From the NCBI GenBank assembly GCA_973895155.1, contig OZ316893.1:17825836-17889835 (forward strand): a DNA stretch of 64,000 bases. Reading direction: 5' to 3'. The translations under genes were made by a program, and so were the position numbers. Position 1 is the first letter of the stretch; the number at the start of each line of letters is the position of its first letter. The notes beneath the pieces were generated by a model. The model was not told the DNA's origin. It saw nothing but the letters and a program-made list of their open reading frames with translations, and did no database searches. This document shows positions 31,101 to 56,905 of the stretch, piece by piece. Source of the stretch: Marsupella aquatica. Its lineage: Eukaryota > Plantae > Marchantiophyta.

Positions 31101-31894
31101 TTGGAAGAGATGAATGTAGAAATCTCATCAAGGAGACTGGATGTAAGTCCGCGCAAGGGGGAATTGTTGGAGTCGCCATTCACGGGTTGCGATTATCGTC
31201 TCCACATCGCCAGTTGTTGTACTTCTGTCCTAATAATAAGTGTCACAAGAGCCGAGGACGCAGAACTCTAGCTCAACTACCCCCCCCACCCGAGTCGCTC
31301 AAGGTTCAGCGTGGGACTTGCCTCTCCCATCCCGAGATAGAGTTTCTGCTGGGATTAGGATTCCAGATCAGTGGACTCTCCTATGTGGATGCAAATCAAG
31401 TTGGAGAGTTCCCGTCCCCCAATCGGGTCAACCTACGAATTGATGTTAACTCATTCCCCGAACAAATTGATCTAACTAATGTGGACCGTCGGTTGAAAAC
31501 TCGAAATGGTAAGGGTGCAAGACAGCGTTTCAGCAATACTCCAGAGTTGCTCAAGCGCATCATTTCCGCTACACAAGAATACATGAGAGTTGTCGGAAAT
31601 GAGAAGGTAACTACCGGAAATGGATGGGGTTGGAGATACTTGATCGCCACTCACGAGACTGATTGACAAGTTCCGCACACATATTGGGTGCAAATCTGTT
31701 GTTTCCCTTCGTGTTCTTGTGAAGACTTTTATAAGAGGCATACACGAGGGAAACCATACATGTCTTGTAAACATCTGCTGTGGGTGTATTTAAACAAGTT
31801 TTCACTCAACCTAGAGAAGGACGACCTTGTCAAACAGCCAATTCTGACTGTTGGGGAAGTGAGGAGTTTAATTCCGTTACAGATAGGGGACTAG
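28182..31894 (+). pseudogene. Mutator-like (MULE) DDE transposase with GCM-like zinc finger and C-terminal SWIM finger (copy 1, one premature stop)
   Basis: Exons 28182-30227 and 30320-31894 give ~1206 aa. Motifs: CAGVLECQNLVC...CGFC...CPA...GFHDH; D in WVSSDVM; D in FIADNAEA; SDAFH at the CxxH position; E in PNCTGAESVHAS; SWIM CSCEDF...CKHLLWV. In-frame TGA at 31664-31666. Confidence 0.85.
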
Positions 31895-32517
31895 TCGTTT
31901 ATTGGAGATGCTAATTATAGGGTGGTGGGATGGATTACTCGAGTTTGTGGTTTCACAAATATCAATTTGTTTTCACCGAGTGAATCATAATGTTAGCGAG
32001 GTCCACAATGGTAACTTTTATGGTGTTTGAGTTTTCTGTTTATGGTTAGCGATCTCTCTAGTCTTAGGAAGTCTACTGCATCCTGACAGAAACATCCTAC
32101 TTTCATACGTGTTAATCTATCGACAAGTTTCTATAGAGTTCACGGTTTGATCATTAAAATGACGCCAGTTTTTGGCTAGCGAGATCGCTAGTCTGATCAA
32201 CGGAATTTAGGACAGGATGTGACAGGATGTTTAGGGTTTAGGGAGGGAAGTTTCCCCTGAAGTTGTTATGGTAATACTCCATCGAATTGATTATCAAAGA
32301 TGAACACAGTTCTATACTAGCGATATCGCTAGTCTGGGAAAGGTCCAACAGTGACTTCAAAATAAAAGTACTATGTGCGAAATGGCATTCCAGAGAAACA
32401 CATAGAAATGAAAGGACCACCCAAACTTTACTTCTCATACATATTGAAAGTATATGAGGACATGCAGTTCGCTTGTAACTACAAAAATTTCAGTAAATCC
32501 ACAACCTGACTCTACCC

Positions 32518-32946
32518 TCAGGGGCTGGACGCCTTCCATGCATCGGAGTCAGTGTCTGACTCTGAATCGTAATCCGAAGAGGCGAGGCGTTCCTCGGTCC
32601 AGTAGTCATAGATCTCCCTGTCAATCCAATACTGATCCTCTTCTGCGAGCCTCTTCCTCTTCGATACAACCTCGCGCTGTGTGGTATCCACCTTTGGCTT
32701 CGGTGGAGACTTTGCTGCTGGAATTAACTTTGGAGGAGTAGGTGTTCTCCTCAATGATGATGACGATCCAACAGATTGACCGAGTTCGGTTGGGACACTG
32801 CTGCCTAAGGAGACCTTCATAGTCTCTGCATCGGGTTTCTGCTTCGGAGGAGAGTCATCTTCAAGCGGGCCATCTGTCGCCGGGTTGTAACGACGGATCT
32901 CAAGTCTCCATTTCCCCTGAGGAGGATTGCTTGGAACACCAGACAT
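32518..32946 (-). CDS. Small low-complexity ORF with an acidic tail, convergent with the transposase; possible third gene of the module
   Basis: 142-aa ATG ORF ending QYWIDREIYDYWTEERL...SDYDSESDTDSD, preceded by an AG acceptor-like site. No recognisable family. Confidence 0.35.
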   Translation of the reverse strand: MSGVPSNPPQGKWRLEIRRYNPATDGPLEDDSPPKQKPDAETMKVSLGSSVPTELGQSVGSSSSLRRTPTPPKLIPAAKSPPKPKVDTTQREVVSKRKRLAEEDQYWIDREIYDYWTEERLASSDYDSESDTDSDAWKASSP

Positions 32947-35430: not shown

Positions 35431-36051
35431 ATGCCTGCGTACATCGTAGCCCAAAATGCTGGAGTGGAAGGGGCAGTTATGGTGGGCAAGCTTCTGGAAC
35501 CGCAAAGCATAGAGATTGGACACGATGAGGCAAGAGGTGTAACTTTACTCTTTCTTACTACAAATGATTTCTTCGTGTTCTGTTATGATTAGAGAGATGC
35601 AGCAGCTGAAAATAATGAGCCGTCGCAGTAGTGGCATTGCTGAATAAATTAAGCAATTATAGTCGATGAATTGGTTGTGCCCCTTTCACGCGGCGTGGTT
35701 GGTGTAAAATTTAGAAGGATTCGGTCTCACTATAATTGTTTGTAATTGTAATACAAATTCTGGTGTACCTTGAGTTGTGCAGCTTGCAAAAATCTGGGAA
35801 AAGGCTCTAGTAGAAATAGGCAGAGCTCCTAGTAGAGAAGGGAAAACCTTTAGAAGAGAGCTCAACTCTGTCCTAGTTAGGTGGATTTGCTTTGTTGAGA
35901 ATGGAATTTTTGGGGAGTTATCCCTACCTTGGTTTGATGTAGATGAGTCAACTCTTCTTGATGCCTATCGTTAGATTTTTTCTCGTATTTGGTTTTTACA
36001 CCCTCACGTGTAGATGTGGATATGGCCAACGCTGGCATGATTGATCCAGTG
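35431..36051 (+). pseudogene. Captured chaperonin-60 (mitochondrial HSP60-like) exon fragments
   Basis: The AG/GT-bounded exon 35431-35536 reads MPAYIVAQNAGVEGAVMVGKLLEPQSIEIGHDEAR, and 36016-36051 reads VDMANAGMIDPV. Both match the cpn60 stretch IAxNAGVEGAVVVGKLLE...GYDA...YVDMxxAGIIDP. Confidence 0.8.
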
Positions 36052-36454
36052 ATCATCGAGTTGCCAAACAATGATTTCCCTGCATTTCCATACGGCCAGG
36101 ACAACAAAGTGTACTGGAGTGTGAATGAGTATATAGATTTTTTTATCTACCTGGACATGCCTCTCACATTTATTTTTGTATATTCTAAGACTATTGCATT
36201 CTTGAAAGATCGTCATTACTCTTAATTGAAACCAAGTTATATCACTTTTGCGCATTTTCCGTACCAAATATAGCAATAGAGAAAGGGAGATAGGAAAATA
36301 CATCTTTGGACGGAGGTAGGGTCCTAGCCCAAGAACCATGCACTTACCGGTCTGCCCTGTTGTTAGCGTTTGATTGCAGAAATGAAACAACAACAATTCA
36401 TTGCACCTCATGGAGTCGCCTGCATTTGGTGCTGGTCGATCTGATCGTGGGTTG

Positions 36455-36562
36455 TGGTGCTCACAGAGGAAGCCCAGAACACCTGAGTTCAATCATAAGA
36501 TGACAAGGACAGCACTTTGGGTGGATGTCTACTCTTCTCTAGCATGGGCGAAGGCAAGGCTC
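36455..36562 (+). pseudogene. Captured fragment of an OSB-type organellar ssDNA-binding protein (PDF motif)
   Basis: WCSQRKPRTPEFNHKMTRTALWVDVYSSLAWAKARL resembles the PDF motif W-D-R-x-K-x-P-x-x-PDFKHK-x-T-x-x-ALW...P-x-W-V-x-x-x-L. Confidence 0.55.
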
Positions 36563-36647
36563 AAATTGATTACTCAAGGTAGATTGGAATCTCGTGCATA
36601 TGGAATTGTGGGCCCCGTTATCCGGCAGATGTCTGGCGTGGCAAAAA

Positions 36648-37232
36648 TTGCTTGGGGCTTGTAGAACTTATGGTAATGTGGAGCTGGGTGAACAGGCCGC
36701 TAACGAGGTTTTCAATTTGGAACCCGGTAAGTCCTCTACATATGTGCTGCTCTCCAATATCTATGCAGCAGTTGGGAAGTGGGAGAAGGTGGCATCTGTG
36801 CACGCTATGATGCAAGAGAGAGGTGTTCGGAAGGAACCAGGATGTAGTTGGATTGAAGTTGATAACAAGATCCATGAATTTGTTGTCGGGGATACATCTC
36901 ACCCAGAAGCGGAGGCGATCTATACCTAGCTGAATAAATTGAGTGAAAAATTGAAGGCTGAAGACTACATTCCGGATACCAAGCTTGTGTTGCATGATAT
37001 TAATGAGGAGGATAAAGAGCTAGCTCTTTGCTCTCATATTGAGAAGTTGGCTATTGTTTACGGACTTATGCACCTACTTTTGGGAGAACCAATTCGTATA
37101 AGTAAGAACCTTCGGGTGTGTTCAGATTGCCAGTCAGCAACCAAGTATATCTCTAAGGTGACCGAACGCGAGATTATTGCAAGGGATGCAAATCGTTTCC
37201 ACCATTTTTAAGATGGAGAGTGTTCTTGTGGT
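36648..37232 (+). pseudogene. Captured PLS-class PPR E/E+/DYW domain fragment
   Basis: LLGACRTYGNVELGE...YVLLSNIYA...KEPGCSWIEV...HIEKLA...KNLRVCSDC...RDANRFHHF*DGECSC. Two stops, no PPR repeats upstream and no terminal DYW. Confidence 0.93.
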
Positions 37233-39064
37233 TGGAGAATGGTGAACAGTTTCCTTGTATTGTTTCACAAGGCAGACGAAGCTGTTTGTCACTCCTTTTA
37301 ACTTATTTTAATGTCTTACCATAGAGGACTAAGACCAATGGTGGACATGAGCTGGTAAGTTTCTCAGCTTTTTTAGAGCACCATGTCACTTCCCTAAAGT
37401 CGTTTATGCTGTGTGACGACGTGGTTTCACTGCCGCTCATCCATTGAAATACATGTCATAATACAGAGCGTAGAAACCTAAGAGGTGATGTCCCTTTGCT
37501 CATAAACCATTACCATGGTGCACCTGTATACTGTGTGCTTACCGAGAAAAAGAAGCAAAAACGATGGGTGCTCAATAATCTCTGCCTGTGTACGTTGGGG
37601 TTACCCCAACCCTGTTGTCTCATAAAGTCAACCGAGACATTTTATCTGACCTCTTGTTTTTTATTTCTACCTTCATGGTGTCTGACTGTTGCAAATGGAA
37701 CTTTGCTTTTTCCATTTGATTGTTATGCTCAATTTTTGTTGCTTTTCTTTTCTACTCCTCTTATACTTACCCTCCAAAGAGTGAGGACAGGTCACAACTG
37801 GCTGTGTTCTATATATGTATCTTTCTGCGTCATGTCGTAGGGACAAACTGAGCTTCTTACCTGGGAGGCTGCTACTTATGGGAAGGAATCCTTTCTATAG
37901 ACTGGCGCTTTTGACCCTGCCAGTAAGAAATAGAAAATTAAGTGATAAATGACATATTTTCAAGCTCCCTTCCTTCCATGGCTATAAGCAGCCATTAGGT
38001 GAATCCACAAGTGTCAGTTGCTAGTGTTGAAGAAACGCCAACTGACTTTGCTGTTGAGATGTTTTGACCCAAGTACGGAAAGGCACTTGAGAAAATAGTC
38101 ACTTGGAATTGTCAACGAGCATGGCTAGAACAAATCTTCAAATGCAAAACTGAAACCGCACAGGAGGAAACCTATTACGAGTAAACTGCTATCAGTTGTC
38201 TTTGACACATCATGGGCATGTTCTGGATAGTCCTCTTGGGCTAGAAAGCATTCGTAGGACTGACAAACTGGTCTACAAAGCTGTTGTAGTGTGTAACCAA
38301 GCTGTAGATATTTCTAAAGGAAAATGTGGCCCAAATGCTAATCCCTTGACTTCTAGAGGTCACAGAGATCTTATTTTGGTTGTTATGGCCAACCGCATAT
38401 TATTCCTTTTGTGATGTGAATTTTTACATTCCTATAATCTGCCTATTCAGCTTGTCTTTCTTCAGTCTTGGTGTATTTTACGATGGATGTAATTGTTTCT
38501 CCCAAAGAGTCCTTCAGATATCTTGTCTGTCTGAAATCTTTTACTTCCATGCCGACTTTGTAAACTCTTTGCCCCCCTGGGTCTTGTCGTTTCGGAATTT
38601 GGGGGCTTCCATATGCTTGAATATTCAGCTCTTAGTGCCGATGGTTTTCTCTTGACCATCAACATTCGGCCAAAGGGTGTCTTTGCAATCATAGTAGATA
38701 CGTGTACAGTCTTGAATTGGAGTCAATGCATTTTGGTGCCTGACTAAAACATTGTTGATGCAGAAAAAGAGAGGAGGTTCGCCACTTGCTACAAGAATCA
38801 CCGCAATCGCTTGATGATGAAATGAATGTTGCATTGCAAGATGGCGGGATTCCTGGGGATCCTAATATGATCCTGCACTGAGTTTGTGTGACATATATAG
38901 TTCAATGTGGCACTGAAATTGTGATTGTATTCTCATATTGGAATGTTGCAGAACCACAGAATTTTCCAAGAAATGAAAGGAGTACGCAAGAAGGGTGACC
39001 AGCACTATCTTTGGGCCTGTGCGTCGGAGTGAAAAGTTGAGCAAGAATCTAGGTCGTACCTACA

Positions 39065-42000
39065 ATGGCAGAATGTGGAGATGAGATGGATCCTGCACAG
39101 GTGGGTGCAGATACCAGACAAGAAGATGCAGATGATGAGTATTTTCCAGAGGAAATGGATGAGGATGGGGGTTATGAAGATGAATACATTGCAGAGCAGC
39201 CCCAAAAGAAACAAGTAAGTAGTTTTCCCGACAAGGTATTGAGTTAAACTCTCTTCTTTAGAGGTTTCATGACTCCCTTACACATATGTACAATGCTTAG
39301 TTTGTGACATTGTAGTTGGTGATGTGATGCAGCGTCCTATGAGTTCTGTTTTGCCTGCAAAGCCTGTGCATGCACCATACCAGCAAGGGGGGCTGACCTC
39401 TGATCAAGGTTGGCGAGGTGGTAGTAGCGGTAGATCCCAGGCTGGTGCCCAATACTATGGCAGGGGGCAGAGTAGCAATTATGCTCGTAATAGAGGTAGA
39501 GCAAGTCCAAACCACAATCTCGTGGGTACGGACATCCACCTCAACCATGGAGATGTGAGTATATCTATATGTTAGTTCTTTGTTAATTAGTAGCACTTGT
39601 GAATTTCAGATTGCATAGCAATGTTTGACATTGTTTGGGATTGAATTCATACAACATGAAATTCATTTCATCTGCCATTGCATGCAGATTCCGCCCAACC
39701 TGATTGGGCAAATGCTGGTAATGATAAGTTTCAATGTCCACCAGGACAGACATGGGTTGAACTAGGTTGGGAGGATGGTGATGGGTCCTGGAATCAACAA
39801 GACTAGGAAGGTGGTGAAGGTAATTGGCAAGGCTTTCAGAACACAGTACCTACAAATGCCGGAAGAGAGGTAAATAATGTATGAAGTAGTTTGCAATGGA
39901 AGAACTCATTTCATCTGTAGTCCATTCATGTGGGTATACTCTGTACATGTATAATGATAGCAAATTATGTGTGCAAGTTGGACAGTCAAACCGTTGACGC
40001 AAGTATTCACTAATGTCCCTATGCAGATGCAACACAAAAGGGGGACATGTATTTTGGAATGTTGACTTGTTTCCCTCAACTGATTTACTAAGTTATCAGT
40101 ACATATGTTTGCACATGCCTAGCTAGAAAGTGACAACATTTGTGCCCTGTACTAGGCTGGACAGGTGGTCCAAGGTCGCAACAATTCTAGAGTGCAGTCC
40201 CTACACAAATGTCTACTGGCAGAGCTACAGGTATATATAATCGTTCAATTTATGTTGAAGAGATGCATTGAATGGTGCCAATAGGTGTTTGTAATAAATA
40301 GTTCTGGTGTATATAGTTCTCAAGCATGAATGGCATTGTATTTGCCAAGGTGACTTCAGAACCCCAGGTAGGGTGAATCAGGGGGTGCCCATTAATATTA
40401 CACCGCCCAGTATTGCAGAGAGCAATGCACAAGGGGAGGTGAAGAAGAAAGGGACAATAAAGTTGAATGAGAGACAATGGATGGATGCTGAGTGTCCTCG
40501 CAAAAACCGATGGCATGCTGATTTGAAAGCTAAAGTATTGCGCTGGTTAGATGTGAGTGTTATTAATTTTAAAAAGTTACATCCAAAAGATTGGAAGACT
40601 GTATGTGAAAATGTTGCTATCAAATGGAATTAGTGGGCAGTGATGATAGCGTAGACATAGGTTGCCTAGAAAGTACAATAGGTAAAATCATTAAACAAGA
40701 TAGATGGAGAATGCATAAGGCTTGGAAGGATGGTGGGGAGAAGCCAAATATGCCTCCACCAGCAAGTTGTGATGATAAAGTGTGGACAAAATTACTAGCT
40801 TATTTTATGACCGATGCTACAAAAAAGAAGAGTTCATAGATGATCGAGGCCAGGTTGAGTATCAGAACCCTAATCTGACAGGAAGGATTGGCACTGCACC
40901 GATCGCAAAATGCTTGGTAAGAATCAATGGCAAGTTATGTAATTCATGCTACACTATGTTGACCTGTTGACTTTGTTTTTCATTGGAAAATGATAACGTG
41001 TGCTTTTCATGCATGTGCAGAAAGCCCAATTGGGGCAAAGCCCTTCAAAAGAAGAGTTGAGGGCTGAAATTGTGAACAACAGGGCATGTGAGGCATCTGA
41101 ATCCTCCAAGCATGTAAGTCAAATGAGTTCTAATTGGTAATTGAATGACCTGTGTTGAATTTTAGGTGTACAGATATCATTGATTGTGCATATATTGCCC
41201 AACATTCATATGGAGTGATTCACTATTGCCTTGTGTCATGTAGAGAAGTGGATCTTCACTTATGGAGATAAGTGATTGTTTAAAGGCTATGGAAACATGT
41301 CTTCCACAGATCAATGAACGTTTGAATTCATTGACTGACTTGTTCCATGTGAACTTCAAGACATTAATGGAAGCCGTTGTATCGGTGAGAGATAAAATTG
41401 ATTGCAATTCTGCAAGAGTTCCACCATCACCACTTGAGGTGGCAAAGTCTATGTACTCTTCTGGCATGCCAACGACATGTAGGTTTGAAGGTAAGGCCCT
41501 ATAACTTTGTGAGATCATATGATTATAAAATCTAGATTGTTTGACATAGTGTATGAATGTGTTATTTTTAGTAACATAGATTGTGGTTGTTGTGCCCATA
41601 GAGAATAAGATAGGTGCTGCAAAGAAGAAGTATGATCACCTGGCAAATAGTCGCTGCAATTTAGAGGCAACAAAGTTGCAGTCTGTACCTGCAACTAATT
41701 TGACAAATGAGAGTCAACCATGTTTGGTTGAGGATGAGATTGGGAAGAGATTGGATGATATCAATGTTGGGGCAAAGGAGGATATTAGCAAACGTGACAA
41801 TGATACCATTGAGCCAGATTCATGTGATGTGGAGCAAGGTTTGTGCTATGTAGATCTTGATCCCATTGCAGAGATAAATGATTTGCAGAATGTGTCATTG
41901 TCAACTACAGGTGTGCCTCTTGTTGTGATAAATCCAACCGAAGAGTTAGTTGGTATGGCACTTCCAGGTGACGAACCTGCTACTGTGACAGTCCCAACAG

Positions 42001-42419
42001 AGAAACCTGCTGAGCCTAGCTTCACTACTATGAAGAGAGGAAACATGTGCACACGAAGCAAGTCTACTGCTAGGAGCAGAGCCACGTCAAAGGTTTTATA
42101 CAAACCTCCAAGATCGGTGTTGGCAAAAAGATCTAAGGTGGAAGTGGGGAAGGCACCTAATGCTGAGGGACAAAGTGGCTTGTTAGCTGTTGATGAAAGT
42201 GGAACACGAGTAGGATTTGGCAAAGTGCAAGTTGGTTCTACAACGTTCTATGGCAAGAGGATTCCCCCAGGTTATTCAGTAGTGTTAATCATGCTACTAG
42301 TGAAACCTAAAGTTGTTCTTCCCATTCCAAACACAAATGATGATCCTCCTCAGAAGACACTTGGAGATGTTGCAGGTTCTTTGGTATTATGGCCAAGCAA
42401 GTACATAGAGGATCCATAA
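39065..42419 (+). pseudogene. CACTA TnpA/ORF2-like multi-exon gene remnant
   Basis: A series of GT-AG exons. The last exon has GKVQVG...FYGKRIPPGYSVVLI...LPIPN...TLGDVAGSLVLWP, typical of the En/Spm TnpA C-terminal domain. Stops and frameshifts are present and exon bounds are approximate. Confidence 0.65.
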
Positions 42420-42899
42420 TAATGTCATGTCATTGTTTGTTTGTAGTATAGTGTGAGTCATGCTTTGTAGATTTTAGAATTCAAGAAGCAATGCATTATC
42501 ATGTTTGATAATTGATAGTATCATGCATTTGCTTTCAATTATTTCAAACAATTATCAGTTTACAAGTTCTTGTTTTCTCTGAAGTACATTGATGACATTG
42601 TAAATTGTTCCATTGTAATTGAATTGATCCTCTTTCAGCAATATTGTGATTCTGTTTTATTCTTATGAATGTTTTATGTAGGATCTGCTTATATCATGCT
42701 TTGTTTCATGTGTATGTCATTCATGCTCTGTTTATTTCTTGTATTCCATGTGTTATACTTCTAAAGTGATATGAGCATGAGTGTTTCTATGTATTGCAAT
42801 GTGGAGTGCTCATGAACTCTCCTTATGAACTGTTACACAATTCATTATTCATGGTTACAACTTCCCTAAATCTCATCATTATTAGTTATGAACATGACT

Positions 42900-43248
42900 A
42901 TATAGAGACCCAAATGGTTTTGTTGTGTGACCCGGACCAAGGTCTCCATTGGTCTATTATGTGACACTAAAAGGTCACAAGCTAGGCCTTGTTAAGGGCA
43001 ACTAAGTAATGGACATGACTTACCCTGTGACTAATTAAAGTCACATTGCAGTCATGTATCAACAAGGCAAGACTCATAATGGAGTCACAGATCAGTCACA
43101 AATGGGTATCAAGAAAGTCACAATGTCCAGTATCAATAGTGACTTCTATTTTTTGGTCTCAACTTTTGCAACTCCAAGGGTCACAGCCTGGGTCACGTCA
43201 CGTGCAGTCACAATGAAGTCACATGAGCCAAAATGAGTCACATATTGC
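42900..43248. repeat. CACTA subterminal repeats (GTCAC/GTGAC motif)
   Basis: More than ten gtcac(a)/(t)gtgac copies in both orientations next to the right TIR, with fewer at 21205-21385. Confidence 0.8.
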
Positions 43249-45597
43249 GGTCTCAGAATAGCTCGGTTTCTTCTAGTGATGTGACACAGACAATGTGTCA
43301 CTTATCCTTGACCAATTAGTACATTAGGACGTATATAGTCATTTGGATCATATAGTGCAATTAGGAACAATATGCGTAGTGATTTAGCAATTATGATTGG
43401 GCTAGGAATAGGATAGTCAACATAAGTATTGATTAGGATGCGCACTATTATGTCCATTCATTGTACCTTGACGGCGGCGGAGTAAACATTTGTTATGGCA
43501 AATCACGCTTGGACCAAGGCAGTCACTTCAGCTAGGAGATGGCAGCTACAAGTACTCAACGATGTCACGTCTGAACTCCCTTGTGAGCATCCATAAGAAC
43601 CCCTTCGATGGCTTGTCAGCTCATTTCCTACTTTGGGCCTTGCCATTGTTTTTTCCTGCTCCACCTTCTGTTTGTGCTTACGCTCAGCTACCACTCACAG
43701 CGAGACTTGGAGTAGACATCATTTTCTTCAAGGAAAATTGAAAGATAGTATGCATTGTAGCCGAATCCGGCCAGCAAGGCACAATAGAAGGTGATAAGTG
43801 GAAGCTCTCCACGAGAGAGTGCAAACCTACCCAAAGGAGGAGCAAATGTTGCACAAAGGACAAGCTCTACCAACGGACAAAGAAGGTTAGTATGACCCTC
43901 ATCGCTCTCAGATTTTGGACACTATTTGGGGAAGTAGGAGCCAAGCTATCTAAGATGTATTGGTATTCTTGCTCCAAGAAGGTTGCTTACAAACAAAGGT
44001 ATGCTAAGTTGGTGATCAAGGTAGCACAAATCAACTGCACACTAGTAGAAATACCCCCTATTTTTTACCAAACCACTATTGACTAATGTGACAAGGTTAT
44101 GGAAGTTTAGGGTGTTATCACTACATATGTCTTAAGTATCACTTCTACAAACTATCCACTCATTTGTTGCGACTCCTTAGCAATGTTGACTTTACCTACT
44201 CTTTTCAATCACTCATTGTTCAAGGTACGTTGAAGGTTCATTGTTCATGGTTTAAGGTCGTCCATGCACCTCACCAATTGCCAAACATTCAAGCTTTTTA
44301 TGTGAGAAAGTCTCAAATAGTAGAGGTACCCCATTACAGCCCCTTATATGTCATTGGCTCCTTTACATGAGCCCCTTACATGTCACTGGCTCCCTTAATG
44401 TCACTGGCTGAGTACGTTAGTACTCTCCACCCTTGTGCGCAGGAGCGAATGTTCAAGGTCTTAGTCCGCGAAGAGGGTTTAGGGAGGGGAGGGGAGGGGA
44501 GGAGGAGCGAGTGAGGTGACTGTGCAAGGGTAGTCGATAGTCGATTGATCGAGGAGAGAACGAAGGTCCCTGCAAAAACGGTGGGATTTGGTGTGCAGTA
44601 TGTCAGGATTTCTTCCCGCTACCACTCTAGAGCCTTTAGGAAGGAGGAAGGGTTTACGACCACACTTGAAGCGCGACATCAATGATTTCCAGTCGGCTAC
44701 TAAGTGCATTTGCGAGTGCTCCCCAAAGGCATTGCGGGGGCCTTGCAGGAAGAATTTTAGGGTTGGAGCATAAGTTTGTGGTGCGGGGGTCCGTCTTCTG
44801 CCATCTGCTTTGTAAGTACTTACCTCTTTGCCTTGCGCAACATTGGAATGGAGCTTTGCATGTCTACCATCACAATGCTTGCTTGCGGTAGAAAGTGACA
44901 ATGCAAAATGCGCCCTAGACTTAGTTACTCTTTGCCTTGCGCGGGGCCTTGCGTAGCATTGGAGTTGAGGTCTATCACGCTGCACTATGGCTCTTGATCC
45001 ACCTCAATCCGCGAAGCTAAGGTGCGGTAGTCTTTGTGAATCAGCTGGGGTGCAGCGCGGCCAATCTTCCTATATTGTCTTCAGGTGCAAAGAATTTCTT
45101 ATCATCTTCTAATGCCTATACCTGTACATTTATGTTGTTTATCTATCGCTAGTAGGTTTAGTTTTTGGTAGTCATCTTCATAGCTAATTGATCAAGTGAT
45201 TGACTGTGGTCTGCTGCTTAGCAAGAGGAGCCGGTTGCTACTTTGTTGACTTCAGCAAAGCTGATTTGAGTTGCGGGCATCGTAGTCTCAAACACCTCTA
45301 CAAAGTTGATCTGCGGTGCCGGTCATCTCTGTCTCTCGGTAGGGTCTAACTGCTGCTATTGCCTTGCTTTTCTTCTCTTTGATATGCTACGATAGGGCTA
45401 AGTTCTACTGGGTTCCCTGAGCTCTACGGGGGTTTTAACAATGTTAGTAAAAAGGAGAAAGTGTTAAATACACCATAACATCAACTCTTCCTCATTTCTC
45501 CAAGATATAAAAGTACATGCCTGGTGGTACATCCAGGTGGTTGGTATAACTGCCTATGAGTTAATCACCTAAGTATTAGGGGATTAACATAGTGGTT

Positions 45598-45830: not shown

Positions 45831-45979
45831 TTATTGTCTTAGCCTATGGTTCCATATTGTCTGGTTAAGTAACAATGTGACAATAGTCATCGTAAGTTGT
45901 TTTTCTAATAGTAACATGAGGTAAGTTTGTCATGTCGTGTAGTTGTAGTGCCTGAAACTTCTATCCTTCGGAACTATCC

Positions 45980-48611
45980 CATTCGAAGATGTCTTATAGA
46001 AGACATCAAGAACCAGATTGAAAACCTGGAGGGAAGACAGAACAAAGATTTAGAAAATCAACCCAAAACTCAAAGAACTTGTTCCAGAAGGTGATTGCTA
46101 ACGAGGGTCGCTATCAAAATAAAAGTGAACTTACGTTAAAGTCAATTTTCTCTTTCCATAAAGGAGCCGGAAGCAGAATTGAGTATGACTGCGCATGCTT
46201 GAAAAAACCATGAGCTTGAGCGCACTATATATGGCTGAGGTGTGATTAAAATCATCACTATGAAGAACAACAAGGAATCCATTATCAGCAAGATACTGTT
46301 TGGAGATATTGAAAAAATGTGTTGGGAGGGATTTGTCCCAAACGTTCCACTCTGGAAACGTTTTGTCAGTAATGAGGGGACAGAGTCTAGTAGGAAGATA
46401 GACAAAACCTCAATCAAAACCTGTTCCCAGAAGGGATTTTTTGTCCAAAACTATCGGAGATTCCCTAAGGCCTCTCGACAAGAGACTCTTCATCCAAATG
46501 TCACACTCTCTAACCATGACGGTTTCTTCCTTTGATTGACAATTGACTTGGCTGAGTCAAGAAAACTTGACTTGAGAAAAATGTCTATTATCCTCTGCAA
46601 TAAACTCTATTCCTTTCCTCTCCAAACCAGAGTTTAATCTTGAATCGAATTCGGCCTCCTCATCCAAGTCAACAAAATTACGTTTCTTCTTTGTTTTCTT
46701 GGAGCTCCCCAAATCTGCCACCTTCTTTGACTTTCTTTTCTTACTAGTTTCCTCAAGAGATGCGTCCTCATCAGCATCTAGATTGGCTTCCTCTCCCGGT
46801 TGATTGTGTGAACTCAACAAGCACCTCTTTTCTGAAAAAGCACCGGGAGGTCAGAATGTAAACTTCAAGAATACATGATTCAAATATAACTTATTGATAG
46901 CGAGGTTTGCTAGCAATACTTACTTGTTCTGAGAGACTGTTGAGAAGCAAAAACCTTTTGAGACTCTGCCTTTTCAAGAACCCCAACTTTCACTCTTGAC
47001 TTTTGAGTGCAGTCGACACTCTCACCTTGCCTCAAACATACTTCCTCCATCAAGGCACAAGCCCTTTCTTCCTTCTCCACTGGACCAAATTTGATCTCAG
47101 ATAGAATATACAAGTTGGGCTCCTCACCCTTCACAATCTTGGTGTACGTCGATCTTTCCGTTTGGTCAAAAGCAGTTGACCACTAATCAATATCGAGGTA
47201 CCAGGGACAATTAAAAACTTCCCAAGCAATAAGGTCTCTTTTGGGGTGAGAAGCATCCACAGGATACATTGAAAAGTAAAGATATGTAACATTTTAGTCT
47301 GCATCTAGCCCAACGCTTGCCCACCCAGTAAAACAAAGGGGGTAACACCAAAAATATGAATCACTACTAATTTCTCAATCCACAAAGAAACGATAAACAT
47401 ATCGCTTTGCCCTTTGACAAATTACATCAACATCAATTTGTCACCCGACTTGGTTATCCAAATTGCTTGAAAAAACTTAGATCTCACACAAAATGCATAA
47501 TCCTTGAAATCATCAAGGATATGCTCCTTTCAAAGATTCAAGATCTTTTTAAGGTGTTGACTCTAAACAATCCTGAGGAGCACTTAATCCAATCTCATCC
47601 AAATAGGCTATCAGCAAATGGTTAGAAATGGATTCAACCAATGACCACATGGACCATGTGTGGCACCACTGCTTGGTCTCATTCTCGGAGAATCCCGCTG
47701 GATGAAACCATTGCTTCCTCAATTCTGGCTTACACTATGCCTCAATCAATTGACATCGAAGAAGTGGATCTAGAGTTGAGACAATAGTGTACATTAAAGC
47801 CCGATCCAATCCACATCCCAATGTTTGACGTCCTTCTCTCTTCTCCCTTTTGCAATACTCATACAACTTTGAGCATTTGGCAAGAAAACTTATGTATTCT
47901 GGATTCAAAACAGCTGCTAGTTTATTGCTGCGGATTGACCATTCTTTTAGCTGCGAGGCAAACATCCTGTTTCCCCTTCAAAATGCGACAAATCACTCAA
48001 GGATGATACTTTTTGTCATTGGGGAACTGCTTAGCAACTATCATCCATAAATATAGACGATGGTTCCCATCAGAAACCGAAAACATCTTGTCCTTAAGGC
48101 ACGCAAATTCTGGATTTTTGTCACATTCTGCTAAACCCAAACATCGTCCCAAGTTGCTAGAATATCTTCAGTGACCACAATCTCAGCGCCTTCTGCATCA
48201 CAAATGGGAACATAAAACTTTGCCAACTTGTCAACGTACCCATTCGTCTTGAACTTGGAGACTAGATTATCGATAGCTCCTGATTGCACCTGGAGCGACG
48301 TCACCAAGTCCATGTTCATAAGTCGACAAAGGGGAATCCTAGGAGGATCTTGCATGTCACCTCTTTCGTTCAAACCCAAACAAAAGAGAGTGACAAGCAA
48401 GCACCTTGGAGAATGCGTCTGGAATTTTGCTGCCTCCCATCAGCACACCATGTGTGTCTTGAGACATGACTGGTGTTCTCAGAGTTTTTAGACCTGTGAA
48501 AAGAATTTGTCTCTCTGCTGTCGATCGAGTCACTCATCTGCTTGAGTTTGTAGTCTATATAGAGGAGGCGGAAAAAGAAGTTTGGGAGTGCAGTGAAGAA
48601 GAATGATCCAT
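45980..48611 (-). pseudogene. ParB-MTase-fold fusion gene, degenerate copy 2
   Basis: PPRIPLCRLMNMDLV...KFKTNGYV...KDKMFSVSDGNHRLY, YFWCYPLCF...SMYP and GFVYLPT...FPEWNVW...YLADNGFLVVLHS. Many stops and deletions; the motif-I exon was not found. Confidence 0.8.
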
Positions 48612-49432
48612 TGGTTCACCAATGGGCTTGATACGGAGTGACCGTCGTTGGGTACGGATGACACCCCACGTACAAAGACACCGTACCAACATCCGCTCCT
48701 CTACTAACCAAGACACGTGAAGTCCAATGGAACGTTTGTAAACAGGATATAATACCGTCATTTGTTTCTAAACGGGATATAATACTATCATCTATAGCGA
48801 TAGCAACTGGAATTTGAGATGTGTCATACGATAATAGGAACAATATATACATTAATTAGTGGTACCAACGGATTCATTAACAACAATGTTGAGATAATTC
48901 CAGATGGTTTAACATAACCTAACCTAAATGCATGAAAGTTTAACATCAAATAAGGAAACTTTTAGAACACTTAAGGTGAACAGAAAACAATTAAAGTTAC
49001 CATTTAACGGTAACTTTTGGTAGCAACCCTCAATATCAAAATTATTCCATTTTAAAATCAATGAAACTAAACCCAAAACATTGCAAAATTTGTCAATAAA
49101 CCTCTAGAATTGGATATTGGAAACTATAATTTTTGATAGCAAAGGTCGCTATCAAAACTCGTTACCACTTTTTTGGAATTTAGAGTAGATTTTAGTGATA
49201 TTAGGTTCAATACAAATATTTTTAAGCATAGTTAATGATAGCGATGATCGCTAGCAAAAGTTATCGTTCTTTATTACCGTTGTATATCTGTTGGCAGATA
49301 CTATCCGTTACTGACCTTGTAAAAAGACTATAGGGGAATCCGATGGCTATGTACATTTGGTCGGTCGGTCTTTGGGTTGATTGGTCGGTCTTAGGGTTAT
49401 TTGGTCGGCCGTCTCTAAAGGTCCGTTAGTTC

Positions 49433-49487
49433 ATTGGTCATGTCGTACTTTGGTCATGTCGTACTTTGGTCATGTCGTACTTTGGTC
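49433..49487 (+). repeat. 16-bp tandem repeat
   Basis: ttggtcatgtcgtact three times within a tggtc-rich tract. Confidence 0.85.
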
Positions 49488-50461
49488 AGTCAGTTCTTTG
49501 GTTGGTCATCCCTGGAGGGTAGGTCCATATATTGAAGAGTTAATTTTGTTAGGTGTCTATTCCAGACACTTGCTGATTCACACTGTCTCGGATTTTGACA
49601 TTCCTTATTGTTGTCACTCTCATCTTTGGTCATGGACGGTTTGCAGAACATGAAGCCCAATAATGGTAAACTTCCCATTGAAGAGGAAGAGGAGACCACG
49701 GAGCAGGAGTCTGAGACGTATGTTTCTATCACTTTGGACATCCAAAATAGGAATAGCCTCCACCAAGTGAGGGAATGAGTCCAGGGGAGTGGAACATTCC
49801 ATGGCTCAGGGATGAGCCCACTCTTCCATTCGAAGATCGATTCTTCTTCCATGTTCCTTCCGATCCAGCCACAGTTTGGCCGCGTCGTCTAGAACTTTGA
49901 AAGCACAAGGTGTTGGGATCTCTTGATTTTCAGGACTCTAAATTTGCAAGCGAGAGCAGCCAAAGGCCTGTCTACAGAGCTCCAAGTAGAGCATTTAGGC
50001 ATAGGAGGGACCATGGTTTCACACAAGACATATACCGTCGAGGAGCTGGTGTCCCGGATGAAGAAATGTCTTCTTCTTTGAATAAGTTTTGTCCAGATCC
50101 CGACCAGAAGGAGTGAGATTCATATAAGGATCGATACCTGCAGATTCTATGTCTTTAGTCGGGCATAAATTAGGTTAAGATACTAAGACAATTTTGGTAG
50201 CAATCTTCGCTAACATCTAGTGTATGTTTTTTCACGGAATATATAAAGAGTTTTATGCTTGTCTTCGTGTATAAATTGGACATCCTAATGGATACAAAAC
50301 AAACGACAAAACATTTAATGCCACAATTATTACCGTTTCAAAATCCGAGAGTTGTTCGAGCTTTCAACGGACTACAATGAACAATTTAGGAATGAGAAAC
50401 ACCCCTTTCATTCTATGACATTGGCCAAGATTTCCATTTGGACTCTATCTACGTTTTAGAA

Positions 50462-53400
50462 ATGGCATCCCAAATCAAAATTGTGCGGGAGTCTACTGGA
50501 GATGTGATCTTTCTTCCTGTTTTTTCATTGAGTGGAGAGCAAATAGTGAGTGAAACTTATCTCGGTCAACGACTTGGCTGGGAGGGGTCATTTATCCAAG
50601 ATGTACTTGGGAGGAGGGAGGATTCCATTGTGAGTCCTGCCCGTATTGAGCCTTCGAGTCTCCATAGCATCCAACATTGGAACTTGAAAATTGGATATGT
50701 GTACTCTATGGTTACTAAAAATGATCCATCCCCCGAGAGAGTAGAAGCAGACATTGATGTTTGTGAAATCAAAATAGAGTCTCCAGATAAAGTTTCCCCT
50801 ATATATCGAGTGAGTGCTTGTGACATGATATTGAGGGTTAAAGGCTCGAGCAAGATATCTTGCTTTGTCCGTAAGTTCTTGGAGTCGGGCGAGGATGTCA
50901 AACATGTTCAATGTCTTCCCAAGGATTACAATGGGGACTCGATATTTGAGCTTCCTCCAGTAGATTCATCCACTAAAAGAGGATATGAGTTAAGATACAT
51001 GGATTGAGAGAATGAATGCTTTCATTGGACCTGAATTATTCTAACTTCTGCAAATGTTTTTCCAAAAGATTTGTATCAGTTCGTAAAGGTTTGATGCTCT
51101 GGGTCAATTGAATGTCAGAATGGGAAGTGTGCATTCTTAGATAAGGGCAAAGGAAGGAATCAAGTGTCCTAGGCGGGAAGGGCAAAAGGAGACGCATGCA
51201 CAAGACTGGGGAAGCAGTTTCTCCCGGAGGAATAGTATGTTTTCATTGTGACAAACCACCTGTATGTGTGGAGACGTGTCCCGCACTAATGTTTTACATG
51301 TACCCACATTCGTCGATGGATAAAGAAAATGTGAGATTCATGTCAAGGCTTGCAATGCATGTCGGATACCATGTCCACCCACCGAATAGTATTGTTTCGA
51401 GGGAGGCCATGATTGCTGTAGAGTCGGTCATCCGAGACCATCATTTAGTGAACCCCTGGCCACATCAGCTCAACTAAAAATTGATGCAACGGAGTCATTG
51501 ATGGCACACTTGGCCTCGGAGAGTGCCGCTGGGATTTCTGCCTAGGACATTCAGGATATTTGGGGCTCATTGAGTGCTCTTGTGTCCAAAGAGAAGTTCC
51601 GAGCCATCTTGCGGAATGTGAAAATGGAGAATCCCTTGAAAAGTGAGTTTGACTCAATTTGGGACATGCAAAGGAACATTCATTTTCCTTACATCCACAG
51701 ATTTCTATTCCCTGGTCAAGGCTCAATTACAACTCGAGCTCATGTTTTCAAGATGAGCGTAAAAGGTCCGGGTTTTGGATTGGATATTCTTCAAAAAATG
51801 AAAAAAGGGGGTTCTCTTGAAGGATCATGGGTTAGTTTTGATGTTATGCACCGGATTACTACTGGCTGGCTCACATTTAGTGCGCACGTTTATGATCATA
51901 ACATCCGTGCCCTTTGTGTTGAGCATAGACGACAATCGCAACGGCAAGCCCATGGACCATTCAATGCACAAGAATCGACACACAGAGATACGTGGTTCAC
52001 CTCCACATGAGGCTACGTCCATGGGAACACACACAAGCTTTATTGCACTCTAGGCCGACCGACCATACCAAGCATCCACAACGCAAGCTCTCTGTATCTC
52101 TCAACTAGCTCCGTAACAATGAGCCTGAGTTCCCCCTCTCCAAGCAAACACCGCTTGGTTATAGAGTGTGCACAGCATGACTAACCTAACCAAGTCTGCG
52201 ACTAAGGTTAGCCTTAACTCATAGTACAATTGTAACTCTAGACCTAAGAGTAAATCCTAACACTCTACACAATATTTACTTGTGAGTTGAAGTCTGAATG
52301 TTGTGAATCATTGTCTACCGCTCGGAGGTTGATGGTAAGTGTCGCATCCAAAAATGGTTTGCACGACATTACCATCCATGGTTTCATGGCATACAATGCC
52401 ACCGTTGGGTGGAATGCGGTTTGGAATGTATTCTGGCAAGGTCTGTCTAATCCAAAAAAAGAGAGGTCTGATGCTTTTCATTTTTTCCGATCACTCTGGA
52501 GGCATACCTGTGAAGGTATTTTGGAGAAAAATCATGATGAGCATTATGCTTTGTGGGACTGTTTGAGGAACGCCTCCACGTACGTCAAAGCTTACAGAAT
52601 TTCTTCAAAGATCAAGAAGTGGTGGCAGTCTGGAAACTATATTCGAGGGAAACTTTGCTATCTACAAGGATGGATTTCCTAGTGGGTCGTTTGATGGAGA
52701 CAGTGGGGGAACTATATCCGGCTGGTATGGTCTTAATCACAAATCTATATTTTATGGCCTGCTCATCAAAATACTGCAAGCGATCTTTGCTAACATTGGT
52801 TGAATCCATTACTTACGTTGATTTATACTGATGTGTTTTGTTTCAGTCGGCTGACGCCCTGGAGTCTGCAAGAATGCCAAATTGCACTAGTTTGGAAGCT
52901 GTCCATGCGAGCTTCCCAACCCAAAAACAAAGTGACTCTAGTGGAGGCTTGCAAAGTTGACTCCAATCGTGCTGCCTTCCAAGTTGCCTGCTACATCGGA
53001 TTTGAGTCTGGTGTGAGTAGAGGTACATGACCAACAATTTTTGAGCTTGCATTTTGCCATGCAAATATGGTTGGTTTTGCTTCCGCTCATGAGAAAGCAA
53101 CCAATTATTTGATGGAAGCTAACGGGAAGTTTGATCTTCTACGGACCGGGCCATTAAATGGTGATTTGCAAACAAAATCTACAAAGAGGAAGGGAATTGC
53201 AAGTGATAAAATCTTTGATCAGGACTCTCATTGACATGACACGGTTCTTCTTACTTCCCCAGCTAGGATTGCATCAAGGAGACAACATCTAAACTCTACT
53301 GAGTTTAGTCCTAATTATACGAGAGGGCCGCCAACATCAATGAATCGGCCCGAGGGAGCTTCGATACCAGATGTTGTAAATTTATCTGAGAGTGAATTGT

Positions 53401-54413
53401 TTGAGGTCCTTTGGACTCTTCCCAGACGTGTTGCTACTTGTTCAACTCCTGTTCCGTCCCCCACACCTGTAGTCCCACAGCCCAATTCCGATTCAAGTGC
53501 TACATTGACATGCCATGAGGTGCGAGTTCCCCAGGGGAGTTGGTATATAGGTAGAATGTCCTCCAAAGGGGTCGGCCCAAAGTGCTATGGGTTTCTTGGT
53601 AGGTCTGCAACTCGAGAGGAATGTCGGAATTCTGTGAAAAAAGTATCGTTACCTGACCCAAGGGGACATGTGGCTATTGTTGTTTTTGCTGCACATAGGA
53701 TTTTTGGCTCAAACGTACCTCAAGTTACTTGGTTTTGTCCAAATAATGTTTGTTCTGGAGGAAAGCCACGATGTCTCATTGTTTCCTTACCACCAATTCC
53801 TGATGTTTTGCCTGTTATGCTATGGACCAATCTTGCTAGTGAGGAAATTACCTTCCTCATTGATAAAGGCCTTTCCTTGGATTTAGGCATTAAAACTCAT
53901 CCCTCTGGAAGAGAACATATGCCAAATGTCTCCCCACCATTGAGTGCCCCTTCACCTCTAGATTTACAAATTAATGTCAGTACATATTGTGAGATGGTAA
54001 ACATGAATGACCCGTTGCATCAATTTTCAAGTCAAAATGGGAAGTCAATCCGCATGAGGGTCACTCTTTTGTTAGAGCATTTTAAATGCATCAAATCATC
54101 AGAGGAAGAGCAACTGCGAGTGTTGACGGAGAACATTATCAAGTTTGGAAATGGTTGGGGAAAAAAAAAAATTGTTGCAACACACAAGACAGATGGAAGG
54201 ATACCAAAAAGATATTGGGTTCAAGTCTGTTGTTTTCCATCATGCTCCTGTGATGATTTCTTCAATCAACACACAAGAGGTCTTTCATATGTTCCGTGCA
54301 AACATTTATATTGGGTTTTTTGTTATTTCTTCAATGTTAGTGTTCGAGAAGAAATTTATGTCAGCCAACCTGCCCTTAGCTTGTCCGAGGTGAGGTATAT
54401 TTTGAAGATGTAG
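50462..54413 (+). pseudogene. GCM-MULE-SWIM transposase, degenerate copy 2
   Basis: Colinear with copy 1: FELPPV, CFHC...CPA...GYHVHPP, RAHVFKMS, WVSFDVM, RSDAFHF, intron ~52725-52846 and YWVQVCCFPSCSC...CKHLYW. Interrupted by a solo LTR. Confidence 0.88.
51917..52262 (-). mobile_element. Solo LTR related to the Copia element at 86-5556
   Basis: Reads TGTTGAGCATAGACGACAATCGC...TAAATCCTAACA. The flanks CTTTG and CTCTA are a decayed CTCTG TSD, and removing the LTR restores ALCTIFTCELK. Confidence 0.92.
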
Positions 54414-54961
54414 GGAAATGTTGTATTTCATGAAAATGTGATTTTCATGCCTTGCCAAGAATTATATTCGGCTTATTATGAAAGTTTTTTTGACTTCCTT
54501 GAATCTATTTTATTGTCCATGTATGGTTAGAGGCTTTACACCATGCCAGGAAACATGAGATTTTTTTACTGATACGAGCAAAACCTTTCCTCATATCAGG
54601 AAAGTTTTACTGTTATCAGCAATGTTTTTACTCACATCAGGAAAAACATTCAAGGAATTGTCATCCTCCATACTGTTGTGAGCAACACCAATAAAAAAAC
54701 ATTCAAAATTGTCATAAAAGTGGAGTGCCAAGTCTCTCCAACCACTTAAAAGAGTGTTCAAAACCAATTTTTATAAAAAAATGGGGCATTGCCCTAACCT
54801 CAAAAGGCAAATTTTGAGCAAAATATGTAAACAATACTAGCGCCAAGCGCTAGCAATGATCCAACCCTATTTTACAAAACCAAACATTGTCTAATACACT
54901 CATTCTCAATAAGCTTCTGTATATGATAATGCCGTTGGAAACCGACAAAGTACTGACCAAT

Positions 54962-56905
54962 TTAACGTAAACTACATAATAGACACCTCTTTAAATAGTA
55001 CCCTAAACTTTGTCGTTCCAACAAGAGACGTATTTCTCCAACGGTGAGTATAGGCTGACTCGACAACGTTGATTCTTGAAGGTCCAGTTTGAAAACATTC
55101 TTATAAATCCAATACAGATGTTTGCAAGGCAAGAAGGGTTTGCGGTGGGCATGACGACGATAGAAATCTTTGCAAGAATAGCACAGGAAACAACAAATCT
55201 GAACCCAATAGGCAATGACAGAGTGGTGACCAATGTGTGTTTGGATGCAAAATTGTTTGCCCCATCCATTTCCTATCGCAACATCCCTGGAACAGATCAT
55301 TTTCATTTCTTCTTTCTCAGCTGCCTCAATCTTCTTATAGTGTGATTTAGTTAGATGCACTCTCTGTAGGCACGTCCTCCCGTTTTGAGATAAACAACAA
55401 ATTGTTGACTGAAGTAGATTGATCCTTTCCGGGAAAACATTGACATTGATTCAAAGATCTAGTCCACTTGGTGCATTTCTTACACGATCACCTTCACCTC
55501 CGATTGATATTCTGTTGTCCTTCAGAAACTCTACCTCCGCAGTAGAAAGATTTGTAGTCAATGCAACGGGCAAGTGATCACAAGGAGGTGGAACATTCAC
55601 CACACCTTTTCGAGGATGACTTTTGTAACAAACATTATTCGGACAGAACCAGATCAGTTCTGGATGTGGTTCCCCTCTGAAAATTCACGCTGCTCAAACT
55701 GTGATACCAACGACTTCGTTTGACGTCCGGTAGCCTACTTTCTTCAATCGATTTCTACATTCGTCACGATCTCCATGTCCACCAAGGGATCCATTGCACA
55801 CTGGGCCAGCACCATGCTTCAAAGTTCTCCTAATATGCCATGCTCCAGAAGGAACATTGGACTCCAACACTGACGGGGTTACTTCATCAATAACATCTAT
55901 TGGGGGCGTGACTGGAGTTGCAGATGACCTCGTCTCCATCGAAGGAGGAGGTGTTCGCTCTTCAAGACTAGCTGAAACATCGCTCTCTGAAATATTGATG
56001 ACTACACTCTCTTGGGGACCTGGTTCAGAAGGAATCGCAGAGAATTCCGTTCTATTGAAATTTCTTTGCTTCAAACCTTGGGTGTTTGGGGTCGTAATGA
56101 GGATAGTGTCATGCCTGTGGGAGTCCTGCGTAGTAGCATGTCCCTTCCTCTTTACTGACCGGGTATGTACATCCCCGTTCAAAGGGGAATTCCTTTCCAA
56201 ATCAGCCGCATTGGAAAGGAAAAGGTTTGAAGCTTCTTCAAACAACCGCGGGGAACCCGCTAGATCTGCAGAGCGGAAAGCCAGCTCAAACACAGTTGGA
56301 CCATTCCCTCTGTTCAATCCCTCTTGTAAGCCGTATAGGCTGCAATTTGAGTGATCGCTCTGTTCTGGTTGGTTTCACACCCTTCAAAGACTCCAACCTT
56401 CTTCTTCGTTTGCCAGGCAATCATCAACGCGTGAGACGACTCGGATCCACCACAATTTGGAATCATTGCCGCTTCCTCTGCACTCTTGCTCTATAGAATT
56501 CACCCGACAAGGTTAGATTTAGGAGTTGAATAGCACCAGGCGCTAGCCAATGAACACATAGAAATAATAGCAGATGTAATCACTTTGAACCTGTATGAGT
56601 AGCTCCAGGCGCTAGCCAATGAACACATAGAAACAATAGCATATGTAATCACTTTGAACATGTATGAGTAGCGCCAGGCGCTGACCAACGATTGTTTAGA
56701 ATACTTACCAATGGAATAAAGTTTCCCCATTGGCGCCATCGGACAACCCACCATGAAATCCAACCTTGCAATATTTGTAATTTACCAGGATAACAATTCC
56801 CTGCCCTCCACCAAGAATCAATTTCTCTAGAAATACGATATGCCTTGATAAATGACTTTGCATTCCGCAACCTATCCCATAGGGCACGATGTTCACTCTG
56901 CTTTC
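54962..56905 (-). pseudogene. C-terminal half of a third MULE-SWIM transposase
   Basis: EHRALWDRLRNA...QGWISWWVVRWRQWGNFI, intron, PNCGGSES, GPTVFELAFR and YWVQICC...CKHLYW. It lies tail-to-tail with copy 2. Confidence 0.88.
56531..56690. repeat. 69-bp tandem repeat in the transposase intron, each unit carrying a TAGCGC-CAG-GCGCTA-like palindrome
   Basis: Units start at 56531, 56600 and 56669. Confidence 0.85.

Follow-up and report, generated by a model that had tools for sequence, protein, structure and literature searches.

The window analysed here is a 64,000-nucleotide stretch of the liverwort Marsupella aquatica (contig OZ316893.1, positions 17,825,836 to 17,889,835), plant DNA rich in transposons that includes copia and gypsy retroelements as well as a PPR-DYW fragment. 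It holds three diverged copies of a Mutator-like element (MULE), which are three subfamilies of a Mutator-like plant transposon, each represented by a single element. Each copy carries dispersed short palindromes of a type of its own. Copies 1 and 2 pair a transposase gene with a divergently transcribed gene for an accessory protein, predicted to combine a ParB-like fold with a methyltransferase-like domain. Boundaries and genes are listed below in window coordinates, with intron borders inferred from GT-AG dinucleotides and spliced homologues, not RNA:

23201-23209: left 9-bp target-site duplication of copy 1, TTGAAAACA, from the empty-site joint and identical 9-mers
23210-33702: copy 1, a complete MULE of 10.5 kb with imperfect terminal inverted repeats (TIRs) of ~45 bp
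33703-33711: right 9-bp target-site duplication of copy 1, the identical 9-mer
23983-27506, minus strand: copy 1 accessory gene, four inferred exons, divergent from the transposase, frameshift near 25748
26803-27506, minus strand: predicted ParB/Srx-fold domain of the copy 1 accessory protein
25350-26711, minus strand: helical domain of the same protein
23983-25262, minus strand: its N6/N4-methyltransferase-like domain, with a degenerate catalytic motif
28182-31885, plus strand: copy 1 transposase, with a GCM-like zinc domain, a DDE domain and a C-terminal SWIM-like motif, with an intron at 30228-30320 and a premature stop codon at 31664
45950-48626, minus strand: decayed accessory gene of copy 2, which has lost intron 1 and part of exon 2 and has a truncated last exon (tblastn; left end approximate)
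50462-54413, plus strand: copy 2 transposase, decayed, with stops, frameshifts and an insertion at 51917-52259
54962-56903, minus strand: copy 3 transposase, 3' part only, with a Ty3/gypsy remnant in place of the 5' part

The palindromes are distributed as follows:

24530-24547: type-1 palindrome (2-nt spacer), accessory intron 3 of copy 1
26728-26745: type-1 palindrome, accessory intron 1 of copy 1
27893-28005: two type-1 palindromes, divergent region of copy 1
30269-30286: type-1 palindrome, transposase intron of copy 1
32045-32333: three type-1 palindromes (32045, 32175, 32316), 3' of the copy 1 transposase
46097-46115: type-2 palindrome (3-nt spacer), accessory intron 3 of copy 2
46896-46914: type-2 palindrome, accessory intron 2 of copy 2
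49135-50214: three type-2 palindromes (49135, 49237, 50196), divergent region of copy 2
52776-52794: type-2 palindrome, transposase intron of copy 2
54836-54854: type-3 palindrome, 3' of the copy 3 transposase
56527-56691: three type-3 palindromes in a 69-bp tandem repeat, transposase intron of copy 3

Copy 1 contains eight TAGCGA-N2-TCGCTA sites at up to one mismatch (core starts 24532, 26730, 27895, 27990, 30271, 32047, 32177 and 32318), in agreement with the 2-nt spacer assigned to it by the initial annotation; six are perfect, two have one mismatch, and an extra candidate at 33492 has two. Copy 2 contains six TAGCGA-N3-TCGCTA sites and copy 3 four TAGCGC-N3-GCGCTA sites, and the ten positions given for these two copies in the initial annotation all hold the named palindromes, allowing zero to two mismatches. 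As a caveat, only one of the six copy-2 sites is perfect (49239); four carry a single mismatch, and the one at 52778 carries two. Of these six mismatches, five are C>T or G>A changes and four of the five fall at the CpG, a bias that the decay of a dead copy is expected to give. One copy-3 site is perfect (54838) and three have one mismatch, and since the sites at 56531, 56600 and 56669 each occupy a unit of the same 69-bp tandem repeat within a single intron, copy 3 provides two independent sites. The palindrome had been said to differ between subfamilies. This is correct insofar as three types can be told apart, but the spacer is 3 nt long in both copy 2 and copy 3, whose half-sites are distinguished by a single base, and TAGCG...CGCTA is common to all three types.

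Using 200 dinucleotide shuffles per copy as a control, we found mean counts of 0.01, 0.01 and 0.00 at up to one mismatch, with a maximum of 1, against the 8, 5 and 4 sites observed in copies 1, 2 and 3. In a scan of the window at the same threshold, no geometry occurred in another copy or outside the elements, and the random mixing of variants within elements was looked for and not found. Even at two mismatches, copy 1 is without an N3 site and copy 2 without an N2 site. A separate palindrome, TAGCGG-CG-CCGCTA, stands at 9323 and 20014 in both long terminal repeats (LTRs) of a gypsy element; it is two mismatches from type 1 and was left uncounted.

The coding exons of all three copies are free of palindromes, and all eight copy-1 sites fall in the non-coding 35% of that element (0.346^8, ~2e-4). 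Site flanks are unrelated within copy 1 (mean ungapped identity 0.31, 28 pairs) and within copy 2 (0.33, 15 pairs), and for these two copies the earlier claim of one geometry per copy amid unrelated flanks stands. The companion claim that orthologous introns keep a site is true of the transposase intron (three of three copies) and of accessory intron 3 (two of two), but accessory intron 2 has a site in one of two copies, and intron 1 is deleted in copy 2. The offset of the site within the intron varies between copies, and in four of five pairs orthologous introns show no alignment beyond the site (z 0.5-1.2; the fifth, 3.1). Confinement to non-coding DNA, fixed geometry and unrelated flanks support the conclusion that the sites are under selection. 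The palindromes could instead act as RNA hairpins in splicing or stability, as a site occurs in six of the seven surviving introns of the three copies. This is extremely improbable, given that 8 of the 14 sites in copies 1 and 2 are located between genes or past their ends, that sequence and spacer are fixed beyond pairing, and that an Rfam search of 21000-58000 gave no match.

Two further explanations bear on the same observations. The sites might be relics of local duplication, inherited with the subfamily and without a current reader: tandem arrays bear sites in the copy 3 intron and at the distant loci described below, each window subfamily consists of one element, and common labels among kin are no proof of co-evolution. 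We consider this very unlikely, because cores are kept amid unrelated flanks, both within copies and between loci of one clade, and six of the eight copy-1 cores are perfect and retain both CpGs. Alternatively, host transcription or chromatin factors, different ones for each subfamily, might bind the sites. These cluster in the divergent promoter and in introns, and AACGG motifs are enriched in the divergent regions too, AACGG/CCGTT occurring five times in 675 nt (27507-28181) and five times in 701 nt (48630-49330), ~7 per kb against 1.7 per kb window-wide. We take the AACGG/CCGTT motif to resemble the plant G2/M mitosis-specific activator (MSA) element, hinting at expression in dividing cells. 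A host reader is nevertheless improbable, as three geometries coexist inside 35 kb of one genome and none is found outside the elements at up to one mismatch.

MULEs are recognised by a target-site duplication of 8-11 bp (PMC6446971); copy 1 has one of 9 bp, together with its TIRs. Contigs of four public sequencing runs were aligned to 22500-36500 for joints and depth. An empty-site joint, 23200 to 33703 with nine shared letters, is present in two of the four runs (X1 and X5, one contig each). In run X2 the summed contig depth, which is not a copy number, is 20,932-122,477 inside copy 1 (23434-31839) against 328-548 at 34175-35108, a pattern consistent with a repeated family. Complete copy 1 encodes only the accessory protein, the transposase and a 142-aa open reading frame (ORF) of low complexity (32518-32946, minus strand), the last without a Pfam match or a counterpart in copies 2 and 3. 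The 3' region of copy 1 also contains telomere-like TTTAGGG repeats (32228-32241), and a deletion joint in run X2, 28432 to 32670, has telomere-like letters between its two sides. The ends of copies 2 and 3 were looked for in the window and not found. Between these two converging copies, at 54558-54640, two degenerate motifs of the terminal type lie in a 41-bp tandem repeat and may be the end of one of them.

The plus-strand gene of copy 1 is, as judged from its predicted structure, an IS256/Mutator-type DDE transposase. The best Foldseek match of its model is the ISCth4 transposase (E 6.6e-4), which we take to be an IS256/Mutator member. An acidic triad and a DxxH motif are visible in transposase alignments, although a Pfam search gave no match for the DDE domain. 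A CxC..CxH pattern closes the protein in all three copies, with a weak Pfam SWIM match (E 0.46). The start of the gene (28182-28470) encodes a confidently modelled beta-rich domain, with ubiquitin-like and DIX domains among weak Foldseek rows (E 0.04-0.09). A search of the transposase alignment against viral contigs returned zero matches. Named homologues of both the transposase and the accessory gene belong to two liverworts, Calypogeia fissa and Riccia sorocarpa.

The N-terminus of the accessory protein is predicted to adopt a ParB/Srx nucleotide-binding fold. Structural comparison gave 13 matches at Z>=2, the best with Z 6.9 (rmsd, the root-mean-square deviation, 2.8; 94 aligned residues), a middling score below the tool's caution level of 8; judging from their names, we take all 13 to be ParB/Srx-fold proteins. 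The best Foldseek match of the domain has E 0.11, and DGNHR, the GxxR box, is invariant in 48 of 48 ParB-domain sequences. The middle helical region has no known family and no usable Atlas match. The full ParB-helical-methyltransferase fusion is confirmed by annotated Riccia sorocarpa proteins of 1191 and 1207 aa, and the frameshift base of the copy 1 gene is missing from other copies in the run contigs. At the C-terminus, the region of the S-adenosylmethionine-binding motif I in Riccia homologues matches PF01555 at E 9.4e-6 to 5.2e-5, narrowly missing the curated cut-off, whereas the window exon gives weak matches to PF01555 (E 0.096) and DpnA (E 0.13). The catalytic motif of amino-methyltransferases is (D/N/S)PP(Y/F). 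At this position homologues have DLPT or DMPS, copy 1 FLPT and copy 2 YLPT; neither window copy has the motif, and the catalytic aspartate is gone from both, so the methyltransferase-like domain of the window copies has likely lost catalysis, as read from these residues. Many accessory-protein copies are present in the public annotation of Riccia sorocarpa (P0176, P0178 and P0179 among them), some under the automatic name 'trimethylguanosine synthase', which probably mislabels the methyltransferase-like domain. The ParB alignment had zero matches in prokaryote genomes or phage records and one chance match in viral contigs (L052, outside any annotated frame), and a PHROGs search gave weak matches only.

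We next asked how motif type relates to lineage. Unspliced homologue calls read into the transposase intron, and 16 such tails were tested. The tail of P0002, which is 72% identical to the copy 2 transposase and groups with it at an unstarred 89/80, fits type 2 with one mismatch (3 of 200 shuffles); that of P0003 fits type 3 with none (1 of 200 shuffles). A joint clade of copy 3 and P0003 gave p=0.188 in the approximately unbiased (AU) test over 65 aa. Decoding sites from accessory-protein ends gave nothing above chance, with one possible intron-1 case, P0157.

A distant branch of 51 metagenome loci, with ~30% identity to the window transposase, was also searched. None of the window-type palindromes occurs in its 177,868 nt. 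Palindromes of other kinds are present at these loci, frequently arranged as tandem units of 84-253 bp. At least 500 nt lie upstream of the transposase in 20 of the 51, and dropping the near-duplicates L043 and L050 left 18. Among these, motif A (CTCGG-N2-CCGAG) is found in all six loci of one clade with 100/100 support and motif B (GGTGCC..GGCAC) in both loci of its sister clade; the distant-loci tree has three motif changes. L014 has GTTTCGG-TC-CCGAAAC downstream of its transposase, and L012 has GTCGG-AT-CCGAC in the orthologous intron, the sole case among the 12 distant introns seen. The two share a TCGG-N2-CCGA core with other outer bases, which parallels the graded variants in the window. 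These results support subfamily-specific motifs, with motif type following the transposase clade. The labels were drawn from the same loci, arrays may have been missed on short contigs, and relatives inherit their labels from common ancestors; the data therefore speak for clade-specific motifs, not co-evolution. Stronger than the clade labels is that the motif A core is kept while its context turns over: of 36 locus pairs, 35 have unrelated flanks (z<3) and the remaining one is a near-identical pair, and in the other 43 loci (157,085 nt) motif A turns up a single time. An intact ParB gene and a motif array do not occur together at any of the 51 loci. In L046 (~3200-3600 and 9800-11300), a ParB gene and a transposase gene, both decayed, lie 6 kb apart in divergent orientation (E 3.5e-7), and the gene pair is therefore old.

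We propose, with about even confidence, that a dimer of the ParB-fold/methyltransferase-like accessory protein encoded by the element binds the palindromes and would thereby mark cognate copies or protect them against silencing by the host. As to the reader itself, the accessory protein is the likeliest candidate, on a balance we put near the midpoint, with the transposase as a live rival. It is favoured because canonical members of the ParB family read palindromes (PMC12704722), because the internal motifs change between clades in which terminal-type motifs recur, and because the accessory protein VANC21 binds introns and intergenic DNA (PMC5735166) whereas the AtMu1 transposase binds TIRs, where its peaks lie, and not introns (bioRxiv 10.64898/2026.08.24.746577). 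According to the rival explanation, which we hold to be somewhat unlikely, the transposase would recognise the internal palindromes through its GCM-like zinc domain, and they would serve it as auxiliary or autoregulatory sites that are related to the terminal motif. Its model does match a GCM domain (1odh, E 8.7e-3, probability 0.99), motif type tracks the transposase tree, and MULE transposases can activate cognate copies (bioRxiv 10.64898/2026.08.24.746577). Yet terminal-type motifs stay recognisable across the 30%-identical branches while the internal palindromes change completely: CACGG..ATAGG recurs 3' subterminally in three distant-branch clades (L006 3798-3835, L013 2788, L014 3356), and a GAGCA..TGCTC pair is found in L014 and at the right end of copy 1.

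Several observations weigh against the accessory protein as reader, or against a tight link between motif and lineage. The copy 1 terminal motif GCGAGCAAAA agrees at 9 of 10 positions with the internal half-site plus flank GCTAGCAAAA, a match that favours the transposase; the left TIR itself terminates in a half-site, and half-sites lie near the ends of copy 1 at 23244, 23261 and 33600. Searches of the accessory middle region against Pfam, PDB and Atlas gave no sequence match to a helix-turn-helix or other DNA-binding domain. P0003 is not the nearest relative of copy 3 (55% identity over 65 aa, against 62-66% for others), three of the five close-branch tails of at least 17 aa are without a match, and 4 of 188 other peptide ends fit at up to one mismatch; with these failures and this background rate, the tails provide modest support. 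Motif A also occurs in one locus outside its clade (L029), and neither A nor B is present in 9 of the 18 distant loci. L012 is closest to P0013, a protein of the motif-B clade, yet carries the TCGG-N2-CCGA palindrome, which disfavours a strict one-clade-one-motif rule. A ParB remnant was found in only 1 of the 51 loci (L046), without a comparable array, and the link between array and accessory gene is therefore tentative there. Lineage fits either reader, as both genes travel together and kin share labels by descent. The idea of selection by a cognate, diverging protein is thus upheld in that the sites look selected and the motif follows lineage, but not as co-evolution with one named protein.

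New sites would arise by local tandem duplication, as seen in the copy 3 intron and the distant arrays, after which their flanks would diverge but the sites themselves persist. If the reader then changed its base preference or the geometry of its dimer, a new spacer or half-site could be selected across the element. The accessory protein, as reader, might load at several sites and spread or bridge over the 10-kb element in a nucleotide-dependent manner, with the methyltransferase-like domain of the window copies acting as a binder or mimic. The outcome would be anti-silencing or self-regulation, each subfamily regulating or shielding only its own copies. In the strongest form of this model, which we consider unlikely, bryophyte MULEs would possess a eukaryotic system of the parS/ParB type: a ParB clamp gated by a nucleotide would load at the subfamily palindromes of introns and spacers and spread over the 10-kb element, and a methyltransferase-derived module would mark or shield it, creating transposon 'incompatibility groups' in one plant nucleus. 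The nucleotide preference of ParB proteins is not predictable from sequence (PMC12704722).

The remainder of the window contains other elements. A young gypsy element at 5995-20670 has an intact 2140-aa polyprotein and 3.7-kb LTRs that are 98% identical, each with a 623-aa ORF of no known family. A PPR E/E+/DYW fragment at 36570-37211 (plus strand; Pfam E 4e-23, 1.6e-31) has an in-frame stop and lies within raised contig depth; it is possibly a captured and amplified piece of a host gene. At 37900-43280, an intron-rich plus-strand gene remnant without a Pfam match lies near a TAGTG terminus with many GTCAC repeats. We take this remnant to resemble a CACTA/EnSpm derivative.

Transposon self-recognition has been proven in few systems, namely VANC, TnpA and AtMu1. 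Family-specific motifs co-diversify with transposon regulators in both VANC (PMC5735166) and Spm TnpA (bioRxiv 10.64898/2026.08.24.746577). The VANDAL/VANC system of Arabidopsis (PMC5735166) is likewise a MULE with an accessory gene. Short motifs particular to each family occur there in introns and in the intergenic and terminal non-coding regions, multiplied via tandem repeats, as is the case in the window family and the distant loci. VANC motifs are 8-9-nt non-palindromic words, whereas those in the window are 14-19-bp palindromes with a fixed spacer. Domain content, compared by description, also differs: the accessory protein of the window family is a ParB-fold/methyltransferase-like fusion, for which binding and demethylation would be putative. 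For Spm TnpA and AtMu1 (bioRxiv 10.64898/2026.08.24.746577), family-specific motifs again co-diversify with transposon lineages; unlike in the window family, the termini are bound and the readers are transposase-derived.

Plavaka of the red alga Bostrychia, with its accessory genes PAG2/PAG3 (bioRxiv 10.1101/2025.02.11.637652), is a eukaryotic DNA transposon with a ParB-like accessory protein, for which self-binding and self-modification have been proposed, and with nearby inverted-repeat arrays. An N6-methylase-like gene lies on the same element, and homologues are noted on Chondrus Mutator elements. Its transposase is of the EnSpm/Plavaka type. Two separate genes encode a fusion of ParB with a 2OG oxygenase and a fusion of the methylase with SET, and the parts of that report covered do not describe repeat sequences specific to families. 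The window family, with PAG compared by description, is a MULE of a land plant with one ParB-methyltransferase fusion and dispersed intronic sites, and its Mutator-type transposase and fusion rule out membership of the PAG cassette.

Bacterial ParB/parS, Noc/NBS and KorB (PMC12704722) share the ParB/Srx fold with its GxxR box and palindromic sites, and ParB-N6N4-methyltransferase fusions resembling that of the window exist in phages (PMC12704722; PMC7383237). The window protein differs from these in that no helix-turn-helix was found, its catalytic motif is degenerate, its gene is spliced and sits on a nuclear transposon, and no phage homologue was found. No linked ParA ATPase is encoded in complete copy 1; without a ParA gene on the element, membership of parABS is ruled out. 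The Marchantia MpDN4MT1 N4-cytosine methyltransferases (bioRxiv 10.1101/2021.02.12.428880) are also liverwort proteins of the prokaryotic amino-methyltransferase type. As described there, they are host genes with an intact TSPPY motif, and 'ParB' does not occur in the portion of that text covered. A survey of eukaryotic adenine methylases, in the passages covered, includes ParB-type helix-turn-helix fusions in chlorophytes and chytrids and not the window family. A literature search, with most subscription papers, RepBase and the Bostrychia supplements outside its coverage, brought up neither a ParB-methyltransferase gene on a bryophyte MULE nor these palindromes.

A ParB-fold protein would supply a known load-and-slide mechanism for VANC-type spreading over a whole element. 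Three natural orthogonal site sets exist in the window and at least three more in relatives, and the idea of ParB plus inverted repeats from red-algal Plavaka is therefore directly testable by cross-binding, in a plant lineage that includes a tractable model, Marchantia. If true, it would provide orthogonal protein-site pairs native to plant chromatin. In summary, the window family is a MULE that most likely works like VANC/PAG3. The idea of self-recognition motifs is known already from VANC and TnpA and has been proposed for Plavaka, and the window family is a variant of it.

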